This document shows, piece after piece, positions 7,481-64,000 of a DNA stretch of 64,000 nt. The stretch lies in the IMG/VR virus record IMGVR_UViG_3300026488_000025, positions 1 to 64,000 of that record; one strand, given 5' to 3'. Each line of letters starts with the position of its first letter. Position 1 is the first letter of the stretch. Source of the stretch: a virus. Made by a program: the position numbers and the translations under genes. The notes beneath the pieces are model-generated. The model was not told the origin of the DNA and did not search any database. It saw nothing but the letters and a program-made list of their open reading frames with translations.

Positions 7481-7536
7481 TAAGTTAATAAATTTTGTTG
7501 ATATTAGTACTCGGATTAACAAAATTTATTAACTTA
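7481..7536. terminator. 19-bp perfect inverted repeat between convergent genes (likely bidirectional terminator)
   Basis: TAAGTTAATAAATTTTGTT / AACAAAATTTATTAACTTA. Confidence 0.6.
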
Positions 7537-23306: not shown

Positions 23307-23467
23307 AATTCAAATTAGAAGATACATCATACGAATCAATATTAGAAGTAAGAAAAGCACTACAAGATTACAAATATACAGTAACACTTGATAACATTTA
23401 TACAGTCGAAGGTGAATCAAAAGGTATTATAAGCAATCTTCAATTCGTGATAATAACAGTCTTATAA
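23303..23467 (+). CDS. Small hypothetical protein (54 aa, below the track cut-off)
   Basis: ATG overlaps the gp4 stop: MKFKLEDTSYESILEVRKAL... Confidence 0.5.
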   Translation: MKFKLEDTSYESILEVRKALQDYKYTVTLDNIYTVEGESKGIISNLQFVIITVL

Positions 23468-23474
23468 ATACATT

Positions 23475-23554
23475 TAATAAGAGGAATCTTGTTTGAACTA
23501 ACTCTTCGCGGTCTTTAGTTCAAACAAGATTCAGGCCGCGAACCACTCTTATAA
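23475..23554 (+). ncRNA. Structured endonuclease leader, copy A
   Basis: Late promoter 23463-70; 18-bp stem 23484-501/23515-532; loop 23505-514 complementary to 23533-542; outer ATAAGAG/CTCTTAT. Confidence 0.75.
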
Positions 23555-23575
23555 TTTACTTATAGGAGTTCTCTA

Positions 23576-24346
23576 ATGAACCTTACAGAAATATTACACG
23601 AATTCAAATCACATAACCTTAACATAATCGATGAATCTAAACTTATAGAGTATATAGACTTTTGCATATCTCACAATCAAAATAACAAAATAATGTACAA
23701 AACAGCACACCATCACATTCTACCACAAGCAGTAAAACTACCATTTGGTAACTTCAGCGACCTCAAATCAAATCCTTGGAACGGCGTGCATTTACTACAC
23801 AAAGACCATTATGACGCACACTTTCTACTTTGTCAATCAATAGAGCATTATAGCATAGTGAGTTCATTTTATGCTATGAATAATAAAGATTTAAAGAATA
23901 AGAGATTAGATAAAAATGATATGGTTTCTGAAGATGTTACGGAATTGTTATTAAGAGATAGAACTAAACTAGTAACAGCAGAATATCTATTAAACGGTGA
24001 ATATACTTCTATAGCTAAAGAAGTGGGTAAGAAAGCATCTATAACGAAAAGAAAAGGATTTATAAAAGATGGGAACCTGACTACGATAGCTAAAGAAAGC
24101 GGAAAGAAAAGAACAGCTACAAATAATGGTAGAGCTATTACAGTTGTTATTTACAATATTAATAATGAAGTTATTGAAGAGTGTAACGGTACTTTCTTTG
24201 CTTTTTGTAAAATACATTCATTGGATTATACATCGTTAAAGAACGCGTCTAAAGATAGTAGATTATTCAAGACAAATCTAAGTAAAGCAAGAGCTATAAA
24301 CCAAGGAAAAGAAAAGTTTATAGGTTGTTATACAGAAACTAAATAG
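23576..24346 (+). CDS. Free-standing HNH homing endonuclease (Mob-like)
   Basis: HHHILP...WNGVHL...DHYDAHFLL. Confidence 0.8.
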   Translation: MNLTEILHEFKSHNLNIIDESKLIEYIDFCISHNQNNKIMYKTAHHHILPQAVKLPFGNFSDLKSNPWNGVHLLHKDHYDAHFLLCQSIEHYSIVSSFYAMNNKDLKNKRLDKNDMVSEDVTELLLRDRTKLVTAEYLLNGEYTSIAKEVGKKASITKRKGFIKDGNLTTIAKESGKKRTATNNGRAITVVIYNINNEVIEECNGTFFAFCKIHSLDYTSLKNASKDSRLFKTNLSKARAINQGKEKFIGCYTETK

Positions 24347-33204: not shown

Positions 33205-33506
33205 TATTCTTCCTCTTTAAAAAATTCTGCGAACATTTTCATAAACTCTTTATTTTCAGTAGGTGACTTATCATAACCAATAACTTCATTTTCCATACGA
33301 TAAAGTTTTCTATCAATCTTTGTAACTTCTCTTTGTAGTTCAAATCTTGTATTGTACGGGTCGTATTTTTTATTGAAACGGCTTAATTCGCCTTGACATT
33401 TAGGAATCTTTCTCATTTGTATTATTCTATCGTTACAGACATCTAAATCTTTTTGAATCTCTCTTTGTGTTTGTACCAAATATTTGTATTCTTGAACTAA
33501 ATTCAT
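33204..33506 (-). CDS. Hypothetical protein
   Basis: Early promoter and RBS upstream. Confidence 0.55.
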   Translation of the reverse strand: MNLVQEYKYLVQTQREIQKDLDVCNDRIIQMRKIPKCQGELSRFNKKYDPYNTRFELQREVTKIDRKLYRMENEVIGYDKSPTENKEFMKMFAEFFKEEE

Positions 33507-33562
33507 CTTGTTTCCTTTATCTCTCTTTATATGTAATATTATAACATAAAGAACCTTAAAGG

Positions 33563-39930: not shown

Positions 39931-40224
39931 TTAAATTTGTAGTCTTTGACTTATTATTGTTCTTCTATCATTTTCGGGAATGTTATGCATATTAATTGTA
40001 TCAGGTGTATCATTTTCATCACAATATCGAGTCGCGCTAGATAGAGTGTTAAATATACGATGTCCTGGGACTTCTTTACCCATTTTGGTGTCTTCAAAAC
40101 AAACAGAAAGAAATTTAATACCATCATCATAGATGTACATTTCTGAAACTGTTTTACAGTCTTCTGAAGCTATCCAGTATTTTTTGTTTTTAATACCAAT
40201 CATCTTAATCCTCCCACTCATCAC
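39931..40224 (-). CDS. Hypothetical protein
   Basis: ORF. Confidence 0.5.
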   Translation of the reverse strand: MMSGRIKMIGIKNKKYWIASEDCKTVSEMYIYDDGIKFLSVCFEDTKMGKEVPGHRIFNTLSSATRYCDENDTPDTINMHNIPENDRRTIISQRLQI

Positions 40225-40552
40225 ATTGTTGCATTACATAATCCATTTCTGCTTTTGAACGCATATAAGATGTAAGATAGCCGTCAATGTTAGATGCTCC
40301 TACTGGATTTGCTGAGTGAATATTCCAAGTAAATGTATCAGGAATAAATTCACCTGACATATCTAAGTCCATTTCAATTAGCCATTTAACAATAACCATC
40401 GAAGTGTCATCACCACCTAAATCGTGGTCCCAACTTATAAAATCAGGACAACCGAAACGAGTTAAGTACTCAATAGTTTCTTCGCTTGAACGAGTAATTT
40501 TGTCAAAAGTTCCTTTAGGATTTCTAATATCATCTACATATAACTTTCTCAT
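40205..40552 (-). CDS. Cyclic-phosphate-processing receiver-domain protein
   Basis: KLYVDDIR.P, ISWDHDLG and IHSANPVG. Confidence 0.75.
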   Translation of the reverse strand: MRKLYVDDIRNPKGTFDKITRSSEETIEYLTRFGCPDFISWDHDLGGDDTSMVIVKWLIEMDLDMSGEFIPDTFTWNIHSANPVGASNIDGYLTSYMRSKAEMDYVMQQCDEWED

Positions 40553-40624
40553 CTTTCTCTCCTTTTAATCTTTATATGTAATATTATAACATAACTTAAC
40601 TTAAAAACTCCTTATAAATAAGAG

Positions 40625-40714
40625 TATAAGAGATACTACATATACTTTCTAACTCTTAGTCGGGTTCTTAGAAAGTATATGTAGTGTGAACCCGACTAAC
40701 CTCACACTCTTATA
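40625..40714 (+). ncRNA. Structured endonuclease leader, copy B
   Basis: Late promoter 40613-20; 20-bp stem 40633-52/40668-87; loop 40656-67 perfectly complementary to 40688-99; outer TATAAGAG/CTCTTATA. Confidence 0.75.
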
Positions 40715-40736
40715 ATAAAAATATAGGAGTCTTCAA

Positions 40737-41372
40737 ATGACTACACAACAAGAAAATCAAGTAACACTATACATAGCAACTCATAACAAAACAGGTCTTA
40801 AGTATTTCGGTAAAACAACAGTTTATTTTACTGAAGAACTACTCCAAGAAAAATATCACGGAAGTGGTAAATATTGGGTTAGGCATCTTAAAAAACACGG
40901 TGATGATGTGACTATGGAAATCTATGGTATATATGCATTGGATGAAGTAAAAGAAGTTGCATTAAAGTTTTCTGAAGAAAACAATATAGTAAAATCTCAT
41001 AAATGGTCAAACCTTAAGTTAGAAAATGGTTTAGATGGAGGTTCAACTATATGGTCAGAGAAGTCAAAAATCAAAAATAGTATTAGTCACCTCGGAGTCA
41101 AAAATAGTATGTACGGAAAGACTCATTCTTTAGAAACGAAGCTTCTTTTAGGTAAACAGTCCTCACTAAGAACTCAAGGTTCTGATAATCCAAATGCTAA
41201 AAAGTGGAAAGTAACTAATCCAAACGGTATAATATTTATTGTTGAAGGAGGTATTATCGATTTTTCCAAAAAACATAATTTACCTACTACTACTTTAGCA
41301 ACAATGGCTAAAGAAAATAGAATAATGAAATCCGGTAAATTAGTGGGTTGGAAGTGTGAATTTCTTACTTAA
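40737..41372 (+). CDS. GIY-YIG-like (Seg-type) homing endonuclease with NUMOD3-like motif
   Basis: TLYIATH..TGLKYFGKT, YHGSG.YW and MYGKTHS.ETK. Confidence 0.8.
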   Translation: MTTQQENQVTLYIATHNKTGLKYFGKTTVYFTEELLQEKYHGSGKYWVRHLKKHGDDVTMEIYGIYALDEVKEVALKFSEENNIVKSHKWSNLKLENGLDGGSTIWSEKSKIKNSISHLGVKNSMYGKTHSLETKLLLGKQSSLRTQGSDNPNAKKWKVTNPNGIIFIVEGGIIDFSKKHNLPTTTLATMAKENRIMKSGKLVGWKCEFLT

Positions 41373-41542
41373 AGCAGTTATTTGCACCTAAATCTAGTGC
41401 TTGAATCTTTCTATTTGCTTCATCTTGTTCAGCTTGTGTACTAGCAAAGACAAATTCCATTAATAATTCTCTATACATTCTTTCCTCCTTTTCCTTCTAT
41501 TTATATGCATATAAATACATCATATATACTTTCGAAACCAAT

Positions 41543-42259
41543 ATGGAGACAATTATGATATTAGGACCTAGTGTAACGCACAAATTATCTTTAATAAGAT
41601 TTACTAAACTTGAAGAAGAATGCTTAGAAATACACGGCGACCAATTTAACTATGATTCTTTCGTATTTACTAATATGAGATTACCGTCCACTATAATATG
41701 TAATATATGCAAAACATCATTCGATACATCTATGGACGCTCACATAAACAAAAAGTCTGGATGCAAAAAGTGCAAATCAACTAAACCTCAGCTAACACTC
41801 GATACGATTAAAAAGAGAGTCAAAAAATGTCACGGCGACAAATACACTATACTTAGTAGCGTGTTTACCGGCATAACAAACAAACTACTAATCAGATGCA
41901 ACACTTGTAAATCAGAATATCTTCAAGTAGCCGATAGCATAACTAGAGGTATTGGTTGTGCATCTTGCAATAAGACTGGTTTTAATGACAATAAACCTGC
42001 TACGCTATACTATATAAGTGTAGCTAATACTGCATTTAAAATAGGTATAACTAATAGGACAATAAAGGAACGATTTGGTAAAGATTTTAGTAAAATACGA
42101 GTTATAGCAACAAAACATTTCGATAAAGGTGTAGATGCTCGTTTAGCAGAACGAGAAATCATACTAAAATATAGAGAATGTCGCTATTTAGGCGAAAATC
42201 TACTAATGAACGGTAATACAGAATTATTTTATATGGATGTACTACAAGGTAAGCTTTAG
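41543..42259 (+). CDS. Zinc-ribbon-repeat homing-endonuclease-like protein (DUF723/Hef-like)
   Basis: Two repeats with CxxC...GCxxC; C-terminal LYYI...FKIGIT....ERF...GNTE. Confidence 0.7.
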   Translation: METIMILGPSVTHKLSLIRFTKLEEECLEIHGDQFNYDSFVFTNMRLPSTIICNICKTSFDTSMDAHINKKSGCKKCKSTKPQLTLDTIKKRVKKCHGDKYTILSSVFTGITNKLLIRCNTCKSEYLQVADSITRGIGCASCNKTGFNDNKPATLYYISVANTAFKIGITNRTIKERFGKDFSKIRVIATKHFDKGVDARLAEREIILKYRECRYLGENLLMNGNTELFYMDVLQGKL

Positions 42260-43637: not shown

Positions 43638-44713
43638 AAGAAGTCAGCCAATGAAGTTTCTACTTCAGCTCCCGAAATATAAAAATCAGATGCATTAGCA
43701 AATAACTCCCCTAGACTATATTTTAACAGAAAATCATTAATCTTCTTAGCATTGAATTGAATCGTTTGTTCTTTGAAATCTTTAACGACTGGATTATAAA
43801 TGTAATCAGGAATAGCATCGAAACTAGTTAAGATATAATTCAAATCGTAATTCTTTCTATACATAACATTCTCGCTTAAATTTACTTCCAAATCTTGAAC
43901 GAATTTTAATGCACCTTTCTCACCGAATGGCACTGTTTTGTATATGTCTTTGATGTCTGACATCTGACCTTTTTTCTTTCCTGCTGTAATTTTCTTAAAG
44001 ACTGTGAAATCACTCATAAGTTTTTCGCTAATACTAAGTTTTAGAAACTCTGGTACGCTTGTAGTGTAAATTTCATTCTCTTTGAGATACGAAATAAATG
44101 TTGGACTGAATGCTGTCCTACTTTTAATATTTGGAATATTATCGACTGCATCACCTAAACATCTGTGAAGTATAGCATAATCTTCAGCTTCTTCTGGTGT
44201 CATTGATACAAAATCTTTTTTAATAGGTCTGTATTGTTTAACGCCTCTGTGTTTAAGTAATTGAAAGAAATCTTTATCTTCACTTAAAATAGTCACATTG
44301 TAAATAGGGCTGTATTCTTTTGCTATAACAGCAATACCATCATCTGCTTCAGTCTTATCTAACCCAATAACTTTGAATGGGAATGCTTCTTTCATAGTAT
44401 CTGTCAATTCATTAAGAACTACATAAAGAGTTTCCCAATTAATATCAGATTCAGATTTATCTCTGTTGCCTTTGTATTCCGGGTAAACATCTTTTCTCCA
44501 AGAACCAAAACCATCTAAGAATATAACTACTTCATCACTTTTAAATCGTTTCATACTGAAGCGTAGTGAATTTAGTACCATATGGAATAGCATACTCTGA
44601 AAGTCAGCTGTTACATATTTTCCATCTTTTTTTGAGGGTTTTGATAGGTGAATGGCCGTATGGACCATTCTTGAAGAAAGATGACCGAAATCTACTAGTA
44701 GTAAATTTTTCAT
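43634..44713 (-). CDS. rnh: T4-type RNase H / 5'-3' exonuclease
   Basis: LLVDF, WRK..YPEYKGNR, EADD, SEDKDF.QL, GDAVDNIP; C-terminal SLADFF resembles a clamp-binding motif. Confidence 0.9.
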   Translation of the reverse strand: MKNLLLVDFGHLSSRMVHTAIHLSKPSKKDGKYVTADFQSMLFHMVLNSLRFSMKRFKSDEVVIFLDGFGSWRKDVYPEYKGNRDKSESDINWETLYVVLNELTDTMKEAFPFKVIGLDKTEADDGIAVIAKEYSPIYNVTILSEDKDFFQLLKHRGVKQYRPIKKDFVSMTPEEAEDYAILHRCLGDAVDNIPNIKSRTAFSPTFISYLKENEIYTTSVPEFLKLSISEKLMSDFTVFKKITAGKKKGQMSDIKDIYKTVPFGEKGALKFVQDLEVNLSENVMYRKNYDLNYILTSFDAIPDYIYNPVVKDFKEQTIQFNAKKINDFLLKYSLGELFANASDFYISGAEVETSLADFF

Positions 44714-45729
44714 ATATTATCCTTTATATGTTTCAAATATGTAGTGCGGTTTATTATACTAAAACTATCTACATATTTTTGTTTATTTTTCAATAACCTG
44801 AAGTTATCAACTGTGCTTTTATACTGTTTTGCTATTAAATAGTTAGCAAAATCATTTTTCCTCATATAGATACCATCCACAAGAAAGAAGTATTTAGCAT
44901 CAATAGTTGTATAAGTATTATCAGTTTCGTAAGTAGGTTTAGTTATCTCTACTAATTTATCTGTTTTTATATCCCAAGCAGTAACTATGTTTTGTTTTAC
45001 GCTTTTAAGTTTCCCTAGTTTATATTCTTCTGAAGAAACCTTTATAGTATTGCCTTTTTCGTCTTTGACGCATACTTTATTACTGGAATTATGGCTATAA
45101 TTCTGTTTATTCTTATAATATTCTTGTTTCGTTACTGATATGTTATTACCTTTTTTATCTACAACTACAACTCTACCTTTAGTATGAAATAAATGAATAT
45201 CACTATCATATTGGTCTTTATTTACTGTAATATTTTCGCCTGTTCTTATAAGTTTAACATTAACCTTACCTTTAGCAACACCTACATAACTAGGATTTGC
45301 TTTAAACTCTTCTACTGTGACTCGCTTTTTATCGCCAGTTTCTAAATCTATAATAGTTGTAGTACCAAGTTTGTCTAGCGATATTTGTTGCATAGATTGT
45401 TGCTTTAGTGCACCATAAGTAGTAGAATCAATAACACCTTTCATATCGTTCTTGTGAGTCATACCCCACCAAGCATAAGTAGTAGATGGTTCATCTAAAG
45501 CTTGAGCTAATAGAGAATGAGCAATGTAGTGGTCTTCGCACAATAATATAGCACGATTCCACACATAGTCTTTAAGATTACTATAATCTGGAAATAATGC
45601 TTGTGGTAGAATGTGATGGTTCTCTGTTTGGTTCTTGATATATATAGACTTATTATTATTACAAAAGTCTATATACTCTATTAGTTTTAACTGGTTTTTA
45701 ACTCTAACATTTTTGAAATATTCTAGCAT
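44710..45729 (-). CDS. Free-standing HNH homing endonuclease with repeated C-terminal modules
   Basis: ENHHILP...WN...L..EDHYIAH.LL and repeated GV.KG.V.V modules; likely start 45729. Confidence 0.8.
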   Translation of the reverse strand: MLEYFKNVRVKNQLKLIEYIDFCNNNKSIYIKNQTENHHILPQALFPDYSNLKDYVWNRAILLCEDHYIAHSLLAQALDEPSTTYAWWGMTHKNDMKGVIDSTTYGALKQQSMQQISLDKLGTTTIIDLETGDKKRVTVEEFKANPSYVGVAKGKVNVKLIRTGENITVNKDQYDSDIHLFHTKGRVVVVDKKGNNISVTKQEYYKNKQNYSHNSSNKVCVKDEKGNTIKVSSEEYKLGKLKSVKQNIVTAWDIKTDKLVEITKPTYETDNTYTTIDAKYFFLVDGIYMRKNDFANYLIAKQYKSTVDNFRLLKNKQKYVDSFSIINRTTYLKHIKDNI

Positions 45730-45787
45730 AATGACCTCCAAAAGTCTATATAGTATTATTTATATAGACCGTTCAAGAAATCAAGTG

Positions 45788-50661: not shown

Positions 50662-52185
50662 TTAAAGTTTGATTGCTAGAATCTCATCGATTAATGCGTT
50701 TGAGTTTTTCCACATCTTCGGAATTACGCTTAACATCTTGTCCGAAAATCCTGAAACTTCCAGAATGTCATTAGATAATTTCATTGGTGTGTCACCGCCG
50801 TATCCTTGAAGATTCCAGAATAGTATCTTAACATTTGGGTTGATTTTTCTATATGCTGTTACTGCTTGTTTGAATGAACCTAAACTATTTGATTGCATAT
50901 CTGTTAGGATAACAATTTTATCTACGAATGTTTTCGTTTTCACTAAATCTGCCATACTAGCATTAAGATTTGTACCATATCCTTGTGTGTTTGTTCTCTT
51001 AATGAAATCGAACGGAGAACCACTGATATCCACTCTACGAGCATTGTCTGCCCATAAGTAACCTAATGTTTTGGTTTTATCTAATCCCACTAACATACTT
51101 GCCATTAAAATCTTACCGATTTTGAATGGGCTCATTTCTGTAGCACTTGAACCCCATCCTGAACTACCCATTGAACCTGACTCATCTAGTAACAGTGCTA
51201 CACTCTCACCTTCATCAACGATTGGGATATTCTTTGCTGAAATAATGAAACCTGCTTCGATACCATCTAATAGTTCTTTTTGTAAGATTCTATCGAATGA
51301 CATTGCTTCTACTGCTTCTGCTGCTTGAATAAATCTGAATGGAAGTACCATAGATTTACGACACGCTTTCTCATTTCTGAATAACAATGAAAGTTTTGTA
51401 ATCATTGCTTGTCTATCTGATTGGTCGAAACCATCAAGAGTTTCTAAGATATTTTTAAGGTTTTTAAGACCAGCCATATATCCTAGTTTTCCTTCGATTA
51501 ACATACTGAAATAGTTTTGAGCTCTTGATTCACCAGTTGATTGAGCATTAACTGTTTGAGCAGTAACGATGTTCTCTAATGTTCCTTCGATTAATCTTTT
51601 GAATACATCTGTATCTTTTGCTTTACCTTTTGCTACAAGAGTTTCTGGATTTGGACGAGCAAGTTTAACGATGTCACGAAGTTTAATCTTACCTGAACCA
51701 CCTGAATATTTCTTTAATTGATACTCATCAAATTTTGACTCAAATACATCTTTGATTGCTCTACGAAGAGAATTTGGAATCATTTTACCTTTATTGCGAG
51801 TATTGAATAAAGCAACCATTTCCATAGCATCATCAGGTCTTACAATAGTTTTAGTAAGAGCACTTCTTAAATAATCAGTACCTTTAACATTTTCTGCTAA
51901 GATAGCACCCATTATATGTGATACAGTTCTAAGATTACCTTCATTACGAACATAAACTGCTGCTTTTGCTGCGAACTCTGAATCGCCTTCAGCAACCATA
52001 CCTATAATACGATTGATTCTATCTGATTCTGATTCGTAATATGAATTACCATTTACCATACTTGATAAGATAACTGAAGCTAACTCTTTACGAGCATCTT
52101 CATATTTGTATGCTACACCACCTGCTAAGTTTGTAGTTTCTGCTTTTTTCTCTGTTTGATTGATTGTTTCGTTGAATTTTGCCAT
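50662..52185 (-). CDS. Ro60/TROVE-domain RNA-binding protein with vWA domain
   Basis: TNLAGG.AY, KAAVYVR...NLR, FDEYQLKKY, LPFRF, MIDAS DESGSM, GT and LTD.Q. Likely start 52185. Confidence 0.9.
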   Translation of the reverse strand: MAKFNETINQTEKKAETTNLAGGVAYKYEDARKELASVILSSMVNGNSYYESESDRINRIIGMVAEGDSEFAAKAAVYVRNEGNLRTVSHIMGAILAENVKGTDYLRSALTKTIVRPDDAMEMVALFNTRNKGKMIPNSLRRAIKDVFESKFDEYQLKKYSGGSGKIKLRDIVKLARPNPETLVAKGKAKDTDVFKRLIEGTLENIVTAQTVNAQSTGESRAQNYFSMLIEGKLGYMAGLKNLKNILETLDGFDQSDRQAMITKLSLLFRNEKACRKSMVLPFRFIQAAEAVEAMSFDRILQKELLDGIEAGFIISAKNIPIVDEGESVALLLDESGSMGSSGWGSSATEMSPFKIGKILMASMLVGLDKTKTLGYLWADNARRVDISGSPFDFIKRTNTQGYGTNLNASMADLVKTKTFVDKIVILTDMQSNSLGSFKQAVTAYRKINPNVKILFWNLQGYGGDTPMKLSNDILEVSGFSDKMLSVIPKMWKNSNALIDEILAIKL

Positions 52186-52251
52186 TGTGTTCTTTCCTTT
52201 GTTTAATTCTCTTACGAGATAATGTTGAAGTGTCCTCACTTCACCTTGTGT

Positions 52252-52610: not shown

Positions 52611-53366
52611 CTACTTATGTTTACACTTATCGAAATGCCATTGTTTCATTCCATTAATCTTTCCAGACTTATTGCAGTGAGGACAAGTAACTGTCTCTCT
52701 ATTCTTAGCACTATCACTCATTTGTTTCTTAGTACAATCAGAGTGTTCTTTATCTAAGAATGGTTTAGAAGATATTATAACTCCATCAGCATATAGTTTT
52801 TTCATAAGTTTGGATTGTTTCTCTTTTCTTTCCTCTGAATGTTTCTTGCCTAGACAAGGATGAATCTCTCTATTCTTAGCACTATCACTCATTTGTTTCT
52901 TAGTACAATCAGAGTGTATCTGATTGTACATAGGATTACCAACACCTGCTTTTACTTTTCTCATCTTATTTTTTGTTTCTTCTGAATGAGATAGATTAAG
53001 ATTATATGTTTCATAATGTTTTGAATTATACTTTCCTGACCCATTCATTCTTCTAATTGCTTTACTCATCTTTCGTTCACCATAAGTATAAGAGATAGAT
53101 TTGTAGTGTTTCCAAATAAGTATATGACATATAAAGTGCTCTCTAGCGGTAAGAAGAATGCTATTCCATTTATTAGACCTTAGGTCACCATATTCAGGAA
53201 ACATAGATTCGGGTAGAATATGGTGATTCTCAAAGTATATATACTCATCTTCAGATTTTTTAAGTTTCTTACGATTCTCATTTTGGGCATTGTTTATTAT
53301 GCTAAGGTATAATTTGCCATATTTGGTTTCTTGTTTAAGGTGTGATTGTATTTCTGTAAGTGTCAT
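52611..53366 (-). CDS. HNH homing endonuclease (MobE-like) with NUMOD3 repeats
   Basis: ENHHILP...LTAREHFICH; duplicated HSDCTKKQMSDSAKNRE; terminal CPHC...WHFDKC. Confidence 0.85.
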   Translation of the reverse strand: MTLTEIQSHLKQETKYGKLYLSIINNAQNENRKKLKKSEDEYIYFENHHILPESMFPEYGDLRSNKWNSILLTAREHFICHILIWKHYKSISYTYGERKMSKAIRRMNGSGKYNSKHYETYNLNLSHSEETKNKMRKVKAGVGNPMYNQIHSDCTKKQMSDSAKNREIHPCLGKKHSEERKEKQSKLMKKLYADGVIISSKPFLDKEHSDCTKKQMSDSAKNRETVTCPHCNKSGKINGMKQWHFDKCKHK

Positions 53367-53385
53367 AGAAGACTCCTATAATAAA

Positions 53386-53467
53386 TTATAAGAGTTGATT
53401 TCCAGGTCTGTTACTTATTATGATATAGACCTGGAAGAGTATATCATAATAAGTAACACTCTTATTA
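53386..53467 (-). ncRNA. Structured endonuclease leader, copy C
   Basis: Late promoter 53472-79 (-); 19-bp stem 53440-58/53409-27; loop 53428-36 complementary to 53400-08; outer ATAAGAG/CTCTTAT. Confidence 0.75.
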
Positions 53468-53474
53468 TCTGTAT

Positions 53475-53660
53475 TTATATAGTACTATTCTTTGACTCAC
53501 TCAATAACTCTTCTAAATCAGATAGAGCAAATTCGTATCCCTCTAATAAACCTTGAAGATAAGCATCATTATATTCATTATTACTTTTACTTATACCTTC
53601 ATTGGTTACGCTTACCATAATTCTATAAGAATCAATCAATTTTTCAAGTTTCTCGTTCAT
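53475..53660 (-). CDS. Small hypothetical protein (likely start MNEKLEKL)
   Basis: AAGGA RBS upstream of 53660. Confidence 0.5.
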   Translation of the reverse strand: MNEKLEKLIDSYRIMVSVTNEGISKSNNEYNDAYLQGLLEGYEFALSDLEELLSESKNSTI

Positions 53661-58586: not shown

Positions 58587-61500
58587 TTATGGTTGAATAA
58601 TTTTTCTGAATTTTAAAGTAAGAGTTGCATTACTCAATCTTTCACCCATTATTCTTGCTTTTAACTCGAAACCAGCATTAAAATTCATATTCTCTGTTGT
58701 ATTTATAGTAACTCTTGTGCCCGAATTTGTAATATCTATACCAAGAACATTATTACTTGCTCCGTCTCTTAGGAATATTACATCATTTCTAGCATTTTCG
58801 TTACTTGAAGTTTGGAGATTCCAACCAGTCAAACACATATCTTCATCTATTAGTTTTGGTATTGAAGATGTACTTATCTGTGGAGTACAATTCATATAAG
58901 TATCTCTTTTATCTGTACCATTTTTATACATAATAACATCATAAACTCTATGACTTAAATATTTACCACGAACTGAATCATAGAAATACGGTTCTACTGC
59001 TTGACCTTGAGCGAAACCTGAACCATCATCTTGCTCCCAATAGTAAGTGTTACCATCAGTCGCTAATCTATTGGTTGCTTTTCCTATTACAGAAGGGAGA
59101 ACTGTTAATGCCGCAATCGCTGCATCTTGTTGGACATTCTTATCGTGTTCGATAGCTATATCAGTTTGTAATGAACTAACATCAGTAGCTCTTGTATTTG
59201 CTTCATTATTAACTGCTACCCATAGATTAGTATCTTCCGTAGCTCTTGATGATGCTTCAGCATTGATATTGCTTTGTAAAATATTATCATTTGAGTTTCT
59301 GATTGCTGCTTCATCAGAAACACTACCATTCAATACGATACCGTAATTCACGAAATCATTCTCTAAAGAATCAATATTGCTTTGTAGGTTGTTATCTTCG
59401 GTAGCTCTTGTATTTGCTTCAGCGTTGATATTTGCTTGTAATGTATTATCTGCTGTTACTCTATTAGAAACTTCAGTATTTAAACTATTTTGTATAATAT
59501 TTTCTTTATTTGTTGCTCTAGTAGTTTCACTTGATAAGTTGGCTGATAATGTACTCTCTGCTGTCATAGCTCTTGATACTTCATTCGATAAATCAGAAGA
59601 AATAATCGTAACAGTTGCATTAGTCGTATTGATACCTGCTTGTAATGTGCTTTCTGCTGATTGAGCTCTTACTACTTCTGAAGCTAAGTCATTAGTTAGA
59701 GTTGCATCAGATGCTGTTCTTGCACTTGTTTCTGCTGATATGTTATTTTGTAAATTTGTATCTGCAGATTGTCTTGTGCTTTCTTCAGAATCAATGTTGC
59801 CTTGTAATATAGTATCAGCAGTAGCTCTACTTGTAATTTCAGAATCGATACTAGCTTGTAATGTATTATCAGTAGTTCCTCTAGTAGCAATTTCTTGTGC
59901 TAAATCACTTTCAATAGTATTGCTTCTAGTATTGTTACTGATAACATAAGAAGCAAAAGCATCATCATTTGTTTGGTCTACTGTATTGATTAAGTCCACA
60001 ATCTCTTGGAAAGAATCTTTATCAGCACTTGAACCAGATAAGATTGAATCAATTCTAGCAGTTTCAGTATCGATATTTGTTTGTAAAGTAACATCTACGA
60101 TTGCTTGTTGTGCTACTTCAGTTTCCAATGAACTAATTCTTGCTTTTTCAATATCAATATTTGCTTGTAAAATAATATCGCTATCATTTCTTGTAGTTGC
60201 TTCAGTTGTTAAGTTATTAGCTAATACACTCTCTGCTACCGTTGCTCTTGATACTTCTGTATTTAGATTGCTTTCTATATTGTTTTCTTTAGATGTTGCT
60301 CTTGATACTTCACTCGATAAGTCATTAGTTAAAATGTTATCATTAGCAAGTCTTGTAGCTGATTCACTATCTAAGTTACCTTGAACTTGTGCTATTGAAG
60401 CATCAGTACTATTACTTAAAGAATCGATATTACTCTGAAGAGTCGCTTCAGAAGAAGTTGCTCTAGTAACTTCTGCGTTTAAGTTATTATTTAGAGTATT
60501 TTCTTCAGTCGTTGCTCTTACTGTTTCTGCGTTTAAATTAGTACCCAAAGTGTTCTCTGCTGTTGTAGCTCTTTGTACTTCATTTACTAAATTATTAGAT
60601 AATGTTGTATCATTAGCAAGTCTTGTAGCTGATTCACTATCTAAGTTAGATTGAATTAAATTTTCTTTGGTAGTTGCTCTAGTTGTTTCTGTGTCTAGGT
60701 TATTTTGTAATGCGTTATCATTAGCAAGTCTTGTAGTTGATTCAGTAACAATATCTGTATTAAGGTCAGATTCAGCTGATACAGCTCTGTTATATTCTGC
60801 AGTTACACTTCCTTCGATAGTTGTACTTCTTTGGTCGTTACTTGTAACATAAGCAGCGAATGCATCATCGTTACTTTGGTCCACTGTATTGATTAAGTTC
60901 ACGATTTCAGTAAATGAATCTAAGTCAGCAGAAGCACCAGATAAGATTGAATCAATTCTTGCTTTCTCTATATCTAAGTTACTTTGGAGAGTCGTATCAT
61001 TAGTTTCTCTAGTAACGCCTTCTGCGTCTAAATTTGCTTGAATAACATTATCATTAGCAAGTCTTGTAGCTGATTCACTATCTAAGTTAGATTGAATTAA
61101 ATTTTCTTTAGATGTTGCTCTTGATACTTCACTCGATAAGTCATTAGTTAAAATGTCATCGTTAGCAAGTCTTGTAGCTGATTCACTATCTAAGTTAGAT
61201 TGAATAAGTGTTTCTGCATCTGTTGCTCTTGTAACTTCTGTGTTTAAGTTGGCTGTAAGTGTACTTTCTGCAGATGTTGCTCTTGACTCCTCAGAATCGA
61301 TATTGCTTTGTAAAGTTGTATCATTAGTAAGTCTTGTAGCTGATTCACTATCTAAGTTAGATTGAATTAAATTTTCTTTAGTAGAGGCTCTACTAATTTC
61401 TGTATTAAGATTGCTTTGAACTTGAGCTATGTCTGCATCAACATTTATAGTTAAAGTGTCGATATTTGTTTGAAGTGTTGCTTCGGCAGTTGTTGCTCTT

Positions 61501-64000
61501 GATACTTCACTTGCTAAGTTAGTAGTTAAAGTTGTTTCAGCTCCAGTTGCTCTAGTTGTTTCTGTGTTAGCATCTGTTTCAATAGTTGTACTTCTAGCGT
61601 TGTTACTTGTAACATAAGCACTGAATTGGTCATCATTTTCAGTATCTACTGAATTGATTAAATCTACAACTTCTTTGAATGAATCTAAGTCAGCTGTACT
61701 AGCAGATAAGATTGAATCAATTCTTGCTTTTTCAACATCTAAGTTATTTTGTAAAGTTGTATCATCTGATAATCTCGTAGCACTTTCTGCGTCTAAGTTA
61801 GTTTGGATACTTAATTCAGAAGCAGTTGCTCTAGTTGTTTCAGCGATTAAATCGTTAGCCAATGTAGTTTCTGCTGTCTCAGCTCTTGATACTTCACTTA
61901 CTAAGTTATCTGTTAATAGTATCTCAGCATCTGTTGCTCTAGTTGTTTCTGTGTCCAAGTTAGTTTGTAATGTATTATCATTAGAAAGTCTTGTAGCAGT
62001 CTCAGCATCGATGTTTGCTTGTAATGTATTATCATTAGAAAGTCTAGTAGCAGTCTCAGCATCGATGTTTGCTTGAAGTTGAACATCAACTGCAGTTCTT
62101 CCTGCTTCAACTGTATCTATATTAGTTTGAAGTTGAATGTCTGCTGCTGCTCTAACATCTAATTCAGTAGCTATAGAGTCTTCCATAATATGGATTGAAG
62201 CATTAACATCTGTTTCTAGCACATCATAGTTAGTCTGCATAATAGTATCAGTAGCAATAGCTCTTGAAATTTCTGAATCTAAATCATCTCGAAGTATAGA
62301 CTCTGCAGTAGATGCTCTTGAAGTCTCTATATCGATATTATCCTGAAGAATAGTGTCTTCTGAAATTCTTGAAGTAACCTCCGAATCGATACTAGCTTGT
62401 AATGTATTGTCATTTACTTCTCTCACACCAATTTCTGCCGATAAATCTGCTTCAACTTGCGAAATCTTGATGTCATTAGAGTTTACATAAGAATTGTGAT
62501 TACCTTCAACTTCATTGATTGCTAGAACTAAACTAGTTTTATCATTTGTTGCTAATGTTAGAAGAGAACCTTCAACTGATTTAGCTCTTGATTCTTCTGT
62601 ATCGATGTTTGCTTGAAGCATAGTATCATCTGCATTTCTTTGTATTGCTTCAGTATCTAAGTTAGATTGAACTGTATCGATATTACTTTGTAATACAATA
62701 TCTTGTGAGTTAGCATTAGCAGAAACAGTATCTAAGTTAGATTGAACTGAATCAACATTTGCTTGAATAATAATATCATTAGCAAGTCTATCAGAACTCT
62801 CTGTAACAAGATTTGCTTCGATTCCAGCACTTCTATTATCATTGTTTAATACATATCCAGCAAGTGCTTGGTCATTAACAGTATCAACTGAATTAACTAA
62901 AGCAACCATTTCTGTGAATGAGTTAAGGTCGGCACTTGAACCACTAAGAATATCATCAATTCTACTTTTTTCAGTCGCTAATGCAGTACTGATATTAGTA
63001 TCTTCTTGTGTTCTTTGTTGTGTTTCTAATGATACTGTTGCTTCAATAGCAGAACTTCTCGTATCATTTGTACTTTTATAATCTAAGATAGTAGCATTAA
63101 CATCATTAACAGCACCAGTAAGTGTACTTTTTTCTAAAGTATCTAAATTTGATAAGTCACCTTCAACTGATTTAGCTCTTGCTTCTTCTGAATCGATATT
63201 AGATTGAAGAAGATTATCTGCTGCTAATCTTGTATTGTTTTCTGCAGTTATAGAACTTTCGATTCCAGTACTTCTAGTATTATTATCTTGCACATAGTTG
63301 TTGTGATTACTTTCAACTTCATTGATACTTGCAACTAAGTTTTCTTTTCTATCTGTTGTAAGGTCTAAAAGTACACCTTCAGTATTTGTAGCTCGTAGAG
63401 ATTCTGTATCAAGGTTTGTTTGTAAAGTATTATCTGCAGAAATTCTATTAGATTCTTCTACATCTATATTAGCTTGTAGTGCATTATCATTAACAGTTCT
63501 TGTATTTGCTTCAGAATCTAAATTGCTTTGTAAAGTATTATCTGCAGAAATTCTTGAATTAGTTTCAGTATCTAAGTTTGCTTGAAGTTGTGAGTCTTCT
63601 GCTAATCTAGTAACACCTTCAGAAGTTAAATCTGCTTCAATTTGTGTACTTCTTGTGTTGTTAGAAAGAACATAAGAATTGAATGTATCATCATTTGTAA
63701 CATCAACGGAATTGATAATATCAACAACTTCTTTGAATGTGTCTGCATCAGCAGTACTACTTAGTAGTATAGCATCAATTCTTGCTTTTTCAGTATCTAA
63801 TTCTGCTTGAAGTATACCATCTTCTGTTATTCTATCAGCGATTTCGCGACTTACTGAAGTTTCAATATTTGTACTTCTTTGGTCGTTTAAAGTCTTATAA
63901 ACAGAAAGCTTATCATCAAGTACTGTCTCAGCTGTGATAGCTCTTGACTCTTCAGTATCTATGTTATCTTGTAATAAAGTTTCAGCTGTGATAGCTCTTG
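58587..64000 (-). CDS. Giant repetitive coiled-coil tail-fibre-like protein (5' end outside the window)
   Basis: The same repeat pattern continues in frame beyond the track start at 63293. LQSNID.E..R repeats, repeated EKARIDSILS..ADLDSF.E.V.LIN.VD nodes, and a globular C-terminus. Confidence 0.75.
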   Translation of the reverse strand, partial: RAITAETLLQDNIDTEESRAITAETVLDDKLSVYKTLNDQRSTNIETSVSREIADRITEDGILQAELDTEKARIDAILLSSTADADTFKEVVDIINSVDVTNDDTFNSYVLSNNTRSTQIEADLTSEGVTRLAEDSQLQANLDTETNSRISADNTLQSNLDSEANTRTVNDNALQANIDVEESNRISADNTLQTNLDTESLRATNTEGVLLDLTTDRKENLVASINEVESNHNNYVQDNNTRSTGIESSITAENNTRLAADNLLQSNIDSEEARAKSVEGDLSNLDTLEKSTLTGAVNDVNATILDYKSTNDTRSSAIEATVSLETQQRTQEDTNISTALATEKSRIDDILSGSSADLNSFTEMVALVNSVDTVNDQALAGYVLNNDNRSAGIEANLVTESSDRLANDIIIQANVDSVQSNLDTVSANANSQDIVLQSNIDTVQSNLDTEAIQRNADDTMLQANIDTEESRAKSVEGSLLTLATNDKTSLVLAINEVEGNHNSYVNSNDIKISQVEADLSAEIGVREVNDNTLQASIDSEVTSRISEDTILQDNIDIETSRASTAESILRDDLDSEISRAIATDTIMQTNYDVLETDVNASIHIMEDSIATELDVRAAADIQLQTNIDTVEAGRTAVDVQLQANIDAETATRLSNDNTLQANIDAETATRLSNDNTLQTNLDTETTRATDAEILLTDNLVSEVSRAETAETTLANDLIAETTRATASELSIQTNLDAESATRLSDDTTLQNNLDVEKARIDSILSASTADLDSFKEVVDLINSVDTENDDQFSAYVTSNNARSTTIETDANTETTRATGAETTLTTNLASEVSRATTAEATLQTNIDTLTINVDADIAQVQSNLNTEISRASTKENLIQSNLDSESATRLTNDTTLQSNIDSEESRATSAESTLTANLNTEVTRATDAETLIQSNLDSESATRLANDDILTNDLSSEVSRATSKENLIQSNLDSESATRLANDNVIQANLDAEGVTRETNDTTLQSNLDIEKARIDSILSGASADLDSFTEIVNLINTVDQSNDDAFAAYVTSNDQRSTTIEGSVTAEYNRAVSAESDLNTDIVTESTTRLANDNALQNNLDTETTRATTKENLIQSNLDSESATRLANDTTLSNNLVNEVQRATTAENTLGTNLNAETVRATTEENTLNNNLNAEVTRATSSEATLQSNIDSLSNSTDASIAQVQGNLDSESATRLANDNILTNDLSSEVSRATSKENNIESNLNTEVSRATVAESVLANNLTTEATTRNDSDIILQANIDIEKARISSLETEVAQQAIVDVTLQTNIDTETARIDSILSGSSADKDSFQEIVDLINTVDQTNDDAFASYVISNNTRSNTIESDLAQEIATRGTTDNTLQASIDSEITSRATADTILQGNIDSEESTRQSADTNLQNNISAETSARTASDATLTNDLASEVVRAQSAESTLQAGINTTNATVTIISSDLSNEVSRAMTAESTLSANLSSETTRATNKENIIQNSLNTEVSNRVTADNTLQANINAEANTRATEDNNLQSNIDSLENDFVNYGIVLNGSVSDEAAIRNSNDNILQSNINAEASSRATEDTNLWVAVNNEANTRATDVSSLQTDIAIEHDKNVQQDAAIAALTVLPSVIGKATNRLATDGNTYYWEQDDGSGFAQGQAVEPYFYDSVRGKYLSHRVYDVIMYKNGTDKRDTYMNCTPQISTSSIPKLIDEDMCLTGWNLQTSSNENARNDVIFLRDGASNNVLGIDITNSGTRVTINTTENMNFNAGFELKARIMGERLSNATLTLKFRKIIQP

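Follow-up and report, generated by a model that had tools for sequence, protein, structure and literature searches.

Homing endonucleases have to be produced very sparingly and at the proper time, which phage T4 is known to achieve with a single hairpin. Hairpins that sequester the ribosome-binding site (RBS), combined with a late promoter, precede I-TevI, I-TevII, I-TevIII and segB of T4 and mobE of Aeh1, and in Aeromonas phage 25 a very stable hairpin sits immediately before the RBS of seg43(25) (PMC2988022). For endonuclease genes from marine metagenomes, the part of the account of Dassa et al. 2009 considered here describes 5' UTR hairpins with TATAAATA and two complementary motifs (PMC2677866). 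T4-type phages also harbor PeSLs, in which an early promoter is joined to a terminator-like stem-loop and which are reported to act as recombination sites (PMC2839356, PMC4122927).

The window, a 64,000-nucleotide stretch of a 79.7-kb virus record (IMGVR_UViG_3300026488_000025), contains at positions 40613-40739 a leader in which a TATAAATA box is followed, in this order, by AAGAG, the A/A' stem, a loop with X, the segment X', a second CTCTT, a Shine-Dalgarno (SD) sequence and an ATG (copy B; Table 1). An initial annotation had singled it out as a 20-bp stem with a 12-nt loop/tail complement, and every element that it described is present in the sequence. The leader is a conserved architecture, one module placed before several nuclease types, and its probable effect is to limit how much nuclease is made. 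We hold with roughly even confidence that it is the cis-acting 5' leader of a portable cassette (late promoter, structured leader, nuclease gene) and sets the translation of the nuclease.

Table 1. Coordinates of the leader elements and copies in the window
Feature	Position	Strand	Basis or remark
Late-promoter box TATAAATA (T4-type, cassette B)	40613..40620	+	sequence; promoter activity predicted from motif
P1 5' strand UAUAAGAG	40625..40632	+	minimum free energy (MFE) folds; covariation
AAGAG	40628-40632	+	sequence
A, 5' strand of helix P2, 20 nt, ATACTACATATACTTTCTAA	40633..40652	+	inverted repeat; covariation
Proximal CTCTT	40653-40657	+	sequence
Loop CUC	40653..40655	+	alignment
X, TTAGTCGGGTTC, remainder of P2 loop	40656..40667	+	sequence, alignment
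A', 3' strand of P2, TTAGAAAGTATATGTAGTGT	40668..40687	+	inverted repeat; covariation
X', GAACCCGACTAA, exact reverse complement of X	40688..40699	+	no spacer after A'
N, CCTCACA	40700..40706	+	its TCACA pairs with UGUGA
Distal anti-SD element CUCUUAUAAU	40707..40716	+	alternative pairings; covariation
Distal CTCTT	40707-40711	+	sequence
Translation start region: SD TATAGGAG 40722-40729, 7-nt spacer, ATG 40737	40722..40739	+	sequence
Putative homing-endonuclease gene, 211 aa, NUMOD3 and GIY-YIG-like N-terminal motif	40737..41372	+	
Copy A, whole leader	23463..23578	+	covariance model 84 bits; precedes HNH gene 23576-24346
Copy A parts: TATAAATA; AAGAG; A; X	23463-23470; 23479; 23484-23501; 23505-23514	+	
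Copy A parts: A'; X'; distal motif; ATG	23515-23532; 23533-23542; 23546-23555; 23576	+	
Copy C, whole leader	53364..53479	-	covariance model 68.6 bits; precedes HNH/NUMOD3 gene 52611-53366
Copy C parts: TATAAATA; AAGAG; A	53479-53472; 53463-53459; 53458-53440	-	
Copy C parts: A'; distal motif; ATG	53427-53409; 53394-53385; 53366	-	

The arrangement in copy B, where A/A' forms 20 pairs including one G.U (the second pair) and the loop consists of CTC and the 12-nt X, exceeds chance, as had been proposed for the loop/tail complement. Its folding z-score against 200 shuffles is -5.1, and the pattern AAGAG-N14-24-CTCTT-N30-60-CTCTTAT occurs three times in the window (0.01 expected), with no further copies in the whole 79.7-kb record. 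About 40 further members were found in uncultured phage contigs, with six copies in one 81.7-kb relative and four in a 37-kb relative; the family set comprises 30 members in the covariance-model alignment and 14 additional matches in metagenomes. At gathering thresholds, Rfam matched nothing in the window, and a search of 40560-40780 at E values up to 10 returned at best 25 bits against a threshold of 59, with RF02996 (int-alpA) unlisted; HEARO, int-alpA and other Rfam families were thus rejected, as none had a covariance-model match near its gathering score. A megablast of the locus against phage records had no match, and a search for related loci via the neighbouring primase found none. Among the contigs examined, homologous flanks were found in the search for endonuclease-free sites, but every comparable site was occupied.

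The initial annotation had called the gene behind copy B GIY-YIG-like. The N-terminal motif bears this out, but Pfam sees only NUMOD3 (E 8e-6) and PHROGs places the product in phrog_314, 'homing endonuclease'. Among the genes examined, family members nearly all precede HNH, GIY-YIG, NUMOD3 or T5orf172 nuclease genes, so that the motif is indeed, as the annotation had also stated, not limited to HNH genes. Most of the downstream proteins tested match NUMOD3, GIY-YIG or T5orf172/DUF7487, or a PHROG named 'homing endonuclease' or 'HNH endonuclease', while a few have no Pfam match or no PHROG match; judged by domain, the downstream genes would be homing endonucleases. The nearest isolate homologues of the copy B nuclease belong to two Vibrio phages, where the leader is absent and only a terminator and an RBS lie upstream.

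The A/A' helix (P2) is 17-21 bp long across the family and nearly free of mismatches except at pair 2. Compensatory changes occur at 16 of its 16 modelled pairs and 96.9% of the alignment cells are paired, a value reached by none of 500 shuffles, although the family members are related and these covariation counts are not independent events. X and X' are 100% paired, with compensatory change at 7 of 10 pairs in an alignment (MAFFT) that was not fitted to the structure. Their cognate runs average 9.8 bp, against 4.9 bp for non-cognate combinations, and X' begins at offset 0 from A' in nearly all 30 members, so the complement that the annotation had noticed is under selection. The outer helix P1 (AUAAGAG/CUCUUAU) covaries as well, from U:A to C:G in L146, L044 and L193 and from A:U to G:C at another pair in one member. 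In L146, L044, L247 and L193 the change is triple, CUCUUGUA occurring together with ACAAGAG and ..UACAA. The AAGAG/CTCTT repeats, taken by the annotation as a second possible switch point, thus form a covarying helix whose 3' strand pairs with the start region too.

P2 contains 25 G.U against one A.C, and X/X' about ten G.U, from which it follows that folding occurs in the sense strand, RNA being its most likely form; strictly, the excess fixes the strand and not RNA, as G.T is the mildest mismatch in single-stranded DNA too. This bears on a function of the DNA itself, in which cruciforms or single-strand hairpins would mark the cassette edge for recombination or homing, or the repeats would be kept by hairpin-templated repair. 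In its favour are the unusual length and perfection of the arms and the location of the element at the 5' border of a mobile cassette; promoter-plus-stem-loop cassettes (PeSLs) are, moreover, reported to bring about shuffling in T4-type genomes (PMC2839356, PMC4122927). We nevertheless regard such a function as very unlikely: the 25:1 ratio is strand-specific, whereas templated repair would leave only Watson-Crick pairs, the three-way covariation of 5' strand, distal motif and Shine-Dalgarno makes sense only for mRNA, and the orientation and the distances to promoter and ATG are fixed.

The X segments form a shared, slowly drifting family (UU...CGG.CY) that is reused ahead of unrelated nuclease types. 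As X and X' are GC-rich in an AT-rich genome and vary from copy to copy, they could be imagined to serve as guide or target for the nuclease or a host factor, the relationship that the annotation had suggested searching for. Within the 79.7-kb record, the stem is not repeated (up to two mismatches), and X and X' gave, besides themselves, only chance matches at one mismatch, which lends the idea no support. Moreover, the same leader stands before unrelated, protein-guided nuclease families, near-identical X precede different nucleases (L190 and L146 share X; copy B resembles L016) and pairing with the own partner fully accounts for the sequence, so that a guide or target role appears hardly credible.

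From motifs, predicted folds and alignments, we infer a transcription start, a fold and an effect on translation. The leader is predicted to adopt a three-armed fold in which P1 encloses the long perfect P2 (17-21 bp) and a short arm, Pt, where TCACA of N pairs with the last nucleotides of A' together with the first of X' (UGUGA). Support for Pt is modest: its cognate run averages 3.9 bp against 2.8 bp for non-cognate combinations, and reaches 5-6 bp in eight members. The CUC of the P2 loop is the same in 28 of 30 members and stays single-stranded as long as P2 is formed; its possible partners are the GAG of the 5' AAGAG and the SD, to both of which it is complementary. The 5' strand UAUAAGAG resembles the real SD region UAUAGGAG, and modelling suggests that it acts as an SD decoy by pairing with the distal CUCUUAUA. 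The distal CUCUUAUAAU has two partners, namely the 5' UAUAAGAG (P1, start open) and the start region UAUAGGAG (P3, start closed). Across 35 members these two states are iso-energetic in the model, with mean energies of -28.5 kcal/mol when P1 is enforced and -29.0 kcal/mol when the 5' strand is free to give P3; the difference is 0.5 +/- 2.0 and stays within 2 kcal/mol in 24 of the 35. From SD to AUG, 3.6 nucleotides are paired in the P1 state versus 6.9 in the P3 state, and the MFE fold contains P1 in some members and P3 in others, with a closed start in about half.

In the current model, the leader would control in cis, at the level of the sense RNA, how much nuclease is translated. When the distal CUCUUAUAAU lies on the 5' decoy, the start site would be free, and when it lies on the start site, this would be blocked. 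If the A strand became unavailable, refolding to the X/X' hairpin together with P3 would give a closed state. In the predictions, A forced single-stranded yields X/X' plus P3, and RNA truncated from its 5' end through A folds likewise at about -24 to -26 kcal/mol. Candidate triggers for the passage from P2 to X/X' would be that the 5' strand is lost or occupied, that an RNase processes the RNA, or that two molecules pair. The net effect would be a low synthesis of the nuclease that depends on the cassette's own promoter.

The record contains 36 TATAAATA boxes, typically 15-40 nt before the SD and ATG of structural genes, among them those for the major head (16396) and portal (20183) proteins. 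The leaders of the three nuclease genes are 105-116 nt long, against 15-40 nt for ordinary late genes, and almost all family members have TATAAATA upstream of AAGAG at a distance of 6-9 nt. Transcripts from the TATAAATA box would begin 6-7 nt downstream of it, at about UAUAAGAG, judging by the motif. Predicted start-site accessibility peaks at 0.48 for transcripts beginning 3-12 nt before AAGAG and is 0.38 for read-through or shorter RNAs, a small predicted difference. If late transcription started at the first A of AAGAG, P1 would be reduced to 5 bp and the closed state would dominate in late transcripts as well. In the MFE fold of copy B and of several relatives, the promoter and start regions pair with each other, a pairing that is weak in copy C; RNA reading through from upstream may therefore be additionally closed, on the principle known from T4. 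The distal CTCTTATAAT was also considered as the -10 box of a second promoter and rejected: the sequence has no -35, and variants that lose TATAAT (L044, L146, L193 and L247, CTCTTGTA..; L283, CTCTTATTAT) can still pair with the 5' strand and the start region. AUG or GUG with UAG soon after is present in many A strands. A leader peptide was rejected, since copy B, L193 and L195 lack these codons, which for the same reason are ascribed to shared stem ancestry.

A' forms the loop of the alternative X/X' hairpin, and the helices A/A' and X/X', although equally well conserved, are mutually exclusive. In an H-type pseudoknot, loop 3 must cross the shallow groove of stem 1; the linkers from X to A' and from A' to X' are 0 nt in nearly all members (the divergent L197 has an 18-nt spacer) beside a stem 1 of 17-21 bp, which excludes coexistence as a pseudoknot. 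Co-tuning of the two stabilities was also rejected, the correlation between P2 and X/X' not being significant (r = 0.30, p = 0.12). As the X/X' state lies uphill and P2 should form first during transcription, the cis model offers no reason for X/X' being kept.

Covarying complementary loops of one RNA are used for intermolecular pairing in phi29 pRNA and bicoid mRNA. X in the apical P2 loop of one leader could similarly pair with X' of another, which would cap the output at abundant mRNA. The 3' part of X' would lie in the Pt loop; dimers would open Pt and P1 and close the start site. Such a dimer would accommodate two helices that are both conserved and, with zero-length linkers beside A', sterically exclusive in cis; the favoured fold shows both partners in loops, and the cis X/X' state is less stable than the best fold by 6.4 +/- 2.9 kcal/mol. 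If true, it would be a concentration-sensing dosage limiter within the selfish gene's own mRNA, and we know of no such self-pairing leader described for bacterial or phage mRNAs. Its chances are nonetheless judged to be small: Pt is weakly supported, a 9-13-bp complement flush with P2 exceeds what a kissing contact needs and resembles a hairpin stem, and the X segments are not orthogonal within a genome (ACGGTC recurs in three of the six X of the 81.7-kb relative).

RNase III sites are known to control lambda N, cIII, sib and the T7 early mRNAs. Here, cutting of P2 (e.g., by RNase III) or degradation of the 5' strand might leave an RNA with the blunt, GC-rich X/X' hairpin at its 5' end, in which X/X' sets stability and P3 silences. 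The narrow length range and near-perfection of P2 would suit this, as would the fold predicted for RNA without its 5' part through A, and X always follows directly after the invariant CUC, where a cut would give a hairpin flush with the 5' end. However, a stable yet silent product has no obvious use, and once the 5' decoy is lost P3 forms with X/X' unneeded; processing is thus improbable as the main function.

Attenuation, in which X/X' would be a terminator-like hairpin and P2 the antiterminator that lets the polymerase reach the nuclease gene, draws on the GC-richness of X/X' and on its being topologically barred by P2. However, X' is not followed by a run of T (about three in the next 8 nt) and the loop of the hairpin would be 17-21 nt long. 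A terminator scan of 40400-41600 found none, although its 8-nt loop limit would miss the X/X' hairpin. An intrinsic terminator was rejected on the missing U-run and the empty scan, and attenuation as a whole is given little credence.

Relative to the single hairpin of T4, the module adds an RBS decoy, an anti-SD element balanced between two partners and two mutually excluding long helices, and in many uncultured T4-like phages it is reused before nuclease genes of at least four families. With strong covariation among some 40 natural variants, it offers a test bed for the setting of bistable leaders. RNA catalogues lack it, and it could mark mobile nuclease cassettes in annotation.

Start sites whose opening is decided by alternative pairings are familiar from lambda cIII, hok mRNA and the fold-back inhibition of IS10, and in IS10 and hok these pairings keep a gene that is selfish or toxic silent when the transcript or the timing is wrong. 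To our knowledge, none of them is homologous to the leader or has two full-length helices that are each other's loop. PeSLs share with it that they are small portable regulatory modules, repeated in T4-type genomes and tied to gene shuffling, but they are not leaders of endonuclease genes. The hairpins of Dassa et al. also stand before GIY-YIG and other free-standing endonuclease genes ('fractured genes') of uncultured phages and may belong to the same or a sister family; the portion of that report considered describes a plain hairpin and mentions neither a second interleaved helix nor a start-site alternative. In seg43(25), a strong hairpin resembling P2 in position lies ahead of the RBS of a seg-type gene and not over it, although this is a single case for which neither covariation nor alternative folds are described (PMC2988022). 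The T4-family hairpins, with those of Dassa et al. the closest published relatives, share the T4-type phage background, a TATAAATA late promoter (here recognised by its motif) directly upstream of a homing-endonuclease gene and an RNA that occludes the Shine-Dalgarno (here by prediction); in predicted folds of read-through RNA, part of the promoter region can also reach the start region by pairing. In T4, the 5' strand of the single hairpin is left out of the late transcript, whereas the one here is predicted to hold the whole 100-nt element, including the inhibitory strand: the anti-SD CUCUUAUAAU lies downstream of the putative start and would toggle between 5' decoy and SD, and the two long mutually exclusive helices are added. 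The leader is, in this comparison, a more elaborate form of the control known from phage T4.

The arrangement of leader copy B is real and lies well past chance expectation. Reading of positions 40300-41800 reproduced base for base the description in the initial annotation (see table), which had noted a 20-bp stem followed at once by an exact complement of its loop sequence and had deemed it unlikely to arise by chance. This judgement held, as the RNA of copy B folds with z = -5.1 against shuffles, and the window contains three instances of the skeleton AAGAG-N-CTCTT-N-CTCTTAT, with 0.01 expected; the 79.7-kb record (CheckV completeness ~33%) holds no skeleton copies beyond those three. Arms A and A' form the long helix P2, X is the last part of its loop, and X' is the complement of X.

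Leader copy B, as read from the sequence, and the two other leader copies of the window
Feature	Position	Strand	Remarks
Box TATAAATA	40613-40620	+	then seven bases
AAGAG	40628-40632	+	
Arm A	40633-40652	+	20 nt; then CTC
X, TTAGTCGGGTTC	40656-40667	+	12-mer
Arm A'	40668-40687	+	20 pairs with A, one of them G.U
X', GAACCCGACTAA	40688-40699	+	exact complement of X, zero spacer; then CCTCACA (seven bases)
Distal motif, CTCTTATAAT	40707-40716	+	then AAAAA
TATAGGAG, seven bases, ATG	ATG 40737	+	start of 211-aa ORF
Leader copy A	23463-23578	+	layout as copy B; stem and X sequences unrelated
Leader copy C	53364-53479	-	layout as copy B; stem and X sequences unrelated

Copy B belongs to a family of leader RNAs of homing-endonuclease cassettes that is widespread, covaries strongly and has no catalogue entry. 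In IMG/VR, two pattern scans turned up 20 occurrences of the arm together with the loop/tail complement, and a covariance model built from seven family members of equal length recognised 30 members, spread over the window and 11 further viral contigs. Whole-record searches located six copies in one 81.7-kb contig, four in a 37-kb contig and two each in two more, and one metagenome scan contributed at least 14 further matches, about 12 of them distinct. Rfam returned zero matches to the leader. Among isolates, the closest homologue of the protein encoded at copy B, present in two Vibrio phages, is not preceded by such a leader. Nuclease signatures mark nearly all of the downstream ORFs that were examined, mostly NUMOD3, GIY-YIG, T5orf172/DUF7487 or PHROG homing or HNH endonuclease, in agreement with the earlier remark that the motif is not limited to HNH genes; no ORF follows the leader in contigs L042 and L066 (copy at position 99). 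In a decayed leader, L203:1501-1574 (-), the long helix survives; the distal motif, the nuclease ORF and most of X' are gone. Many A strands (e.g. L189, L018, L190, L194, L198) contain an AUG or GUG ~9-12 nt past AAGAG, with a UAG at once or a few codons later. These mini-ORFs were considered as leader peptides, but they are probably inherited stem sequence instead, and they are missing in window copy B, L193 and L195.

All 16 modelled pairs of P2 have changed on both sides, 96.9% of cells are paired, and no shuffled or slid control comes near. In a plain MAFFT alignment of seven members, made with no structure fitting, X/X' is 100% paired and 7 of its 10 pairs are compensatory; in the set of 30 members, cognate runs have a mean length of 9.8 bp, compared with 4.9 bp for non-cognate combinations, and start nearly always from the first base past A'. 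The two bases that follow the invariant CUC of the loop are included in this pairing, a loop CUCUC or CUCUA being matched by an X' ending in GGA or GUA, respectively. The outer helix P1 (AUAAGAG/CUCUUAU) is largely invariant, with U:A replaced by C:G in three members. Non-Watson-Crick pairs in P2 comprise 25 G.U and one A.C, and X/X' has about ten G.U, so the sense strand is the folding strand. RNA is the natural reading of the folded molecule; a DNA hairpin is less likely, although G.T, also the mildest mismatch in single-stranded DNA, could give a similar excess there. The second pair of P2 (family alignment A3; window 40634/40686) is U.G in nine, G.U in two and unpaired in 12 out of 30 members, the rest of the helix being near-perfect; it may be a built-in weak junction point, because the last A' bases also join a small third arm, Pt. 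Between X' and the distal motif, the sequence tends to duplicate the last bases of X and can therefore pair with the first X' bases (UGUGA/UCACA in copy B). For Pt the cognate run averages 3.9 bp versus 2.8 bp non-cognate, reaching 5-6 bp in eight members, and in the favoured fold predicted with it, P1, P2 and Pt meet at a three-way junction.

The end of X abuts the start of A', and the end of A' abuts the start of X'. Because the three segments abut directly, a pseudoknot would have a zero-length linker across a helix of 17-21 bp, and such a linker is incompatible with that crossing; on general pseudoknot geometry, P2 and X/X' cannot coexist in one molecule, being sterically excluded. Folded separately as hairpins, P2 has a mean energy of -19.4 and X/X' of -14.8 kcal/mol, with no significant correlation between the two stabilities (r = 0.30, p = 0.12), and P2 should form ahead of X/X' during transcription. 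X/X' is clearly under selection, and its timing is explained by neither thermodynamics nor synthesis order. When the A strand is unavailable or removed, A' is predicted to become the loop of an X/X' hairpin, accompanied by P3, the helix between the distal motif and the translation start region. Compared with the best fold, this state is higher by 6.4 +/- 2.9 kcal/mol, and by at most 1 kcal/mol in a few members. One candidate role for X/X' is a fold taken after RNase cleavage or loss of the 5' strand, and another is a contact between two leader molecules. It is unlikely to be an attenuator, since a U-run after X' is missing. The divergent leader L197:1501-1615 (+), which has an 18-nt spacer from A' to X' and lacks the distal CUCUUAUAAU, retains X/X', a small arm GAC/GUC and a hairpin AGUCCUU/AAGGACU sequestering the Shine-Dalgarno (SD) sequence; in this single case, an X-to-X' contact could be compatible with a standing P2.

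P3 is 8-10 bp long and pairs the distal CUCUUAUAAU with UAUAGGAG in all three window copies, and in other members with AUUAUAA, located between the AGGA SD and the AUG. A distal variant, CUCUUGUA, occurs in L146, L044 and L247, and independently in L193; there the 5' strand is ACAAGAG and the start region ..AUACAA or ..UUACAA, both partners having changed in step. Minimum-energy folding of the predicted late transcript divides the members about equally into those with P1 and those with P3. Among 35 members, enforcing P1 gives a mean of -28.5 kcal/mol with 3.6 of the last 16 bases (SD to AUG) paired, and leaving the 5' strand free, so that P3 forms, gives -29.0 kcal/mol with 6.9 paired; the gap is 0.5 +/- 2.0 kcal/mol, and stays within 2 kcal/mol in 24 of the 35. 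From these computed energies we read the choice between P1 and P3 as a balanced toggle. The 5' UAUAAGAG would act as a decoy of the true UAUAGGAG, and the distal anti-SD element would select between both. The near-invariance of AAGAG, CUCUU and the loop CUC would then follow because the ribosome fixes the SD, the SD fixes the anti-SD and the anti-SD fixes the decoy. Translation control in cis, via balanced partner choice of the anti-SD element, is the best-supported mechanism.

It had also been proposed that X and X' might have a guide or target relationship, which the phage record did not bear out. In the 79.7 kb, the arms do not recur with up to two mismatches, and X or X' have just chance matches at one mismatch. 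UUAGUCGG.. is common to the X of window copy B, L016 and L248, and L190 and L146 carry an identical X ahead of different proteins; judged by these sequences, X is not private to one nuclease. Empty sites were not found, comparable sites in related contigs being all occupied.

The record has a T4-type myovirus gene set (gp23-like major head, gp20-like portal, gp32-like SSB, Dda-like helicase). TATAAATA is counted 36 times and is taken as the late promoter because it is placed, usually by 15-40 nt, 5' of the SD and ATG of the head and portal genes, among others; in the three leader-bearing endonuclease genes the box-to-ATG distance is instead 105-116 nt. Their products are putatively homing endonucleases, HNH and HNH/NUMOD3 at copies A and C. 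The copy B gene had been called GIY-YIG-like, a resemblance that stands at motif level only, whereas the domain match is NUMOD3 and the protein is a member of phrog_314. Two further endonuclease genes of the window are leaderless: 41543-42259 (+; DUF4379/MUG113, phrog_681), preceded at 25 nt by a TATAAATA box, and an HNH gene at 44710-45741 (-; phrog_655), between the exonuclease and gp32-like genes, with the box just 15 nt upstream. A minus-strand module, reading 5' to 3' CTTAAGG, ~10 nt, TGTTATAATA and ..ATATAAAGAG ahead of the gene start, recurs twelve to fourteen times in window 1521-56010 (e.g. 33500-33561, 40545-40606) and probably represents this phage's early promoters. The gene that adjoins leader copy B and diverges from it, 40205-40552 (-), is driven by one copy of the module and encodes a cyclic-phosphate-processing receiver domain (cREC_REC, E 5e-20). 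A 525-aa ORF lies close to copy C (50662-52239, -), and a 1568-aa ORF (58587-63293, -, and on to 64000) with dozens of 54-nt (18-aa) repeats of 60-80% identity resembles a repeat-rich protein of fibre or coiled-coil type. An intergenic inverted repeat at 7481-7536, whose 22-nt arms are complementary at 95% and flank a 12-nt loop, has no X/X' and falls outside the leader family.

In copies A and C, the stop codon of the upstream gene (23465-23467 and 53477-53475) lies within the TATAAATA box, so that a ribosome terminating on read-through RNA would sit at the P1 5' strand. Predicted start-site accessibility in 19 members peaks at 0.48 for RNAs starting 3-12 nt before AAGAG, and is 0.38 for read-through RNAs and those starting at or past AAGAG; this modelled trend fits late-promoter-specific expression, the effect being small.

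In the T4 family, mobile-element genes (I-TevI, I-TevII, I-TevIII, segB and Aeh1 mobE) have been reviewed as carrying hairpins that sequester the ribosome binding site (RBS) and a late promoter that lets late transcripts escape, and seg43(25) has a very stable hairpin directly ahead of its RBS, whose purpose the review leaves unexplained (PMC2988022). In copy B and several relatives, a helix lying outside P1 is predicted between the start region and the bases around TATAAATA, which is the T4 arrangement. The present leader nevertheless fails the simple T4-type definition, because its inhibitory strand lies within the late transcript. Among 16 endonuclease 5' UTRs of marine metagenomes, Dassa et al. 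(2009) reported hairpins in 15, ten of which had TATAAATA, along with two conserved mutually complementary motifs (PMC2677866); these may be the same family as ours. As far as these accounts describe them, the T4-family and marine hairpins have purpose and promoter in common with the present leader, which adds to them the decoy/anti-SD toggle and the interleaved second helix.
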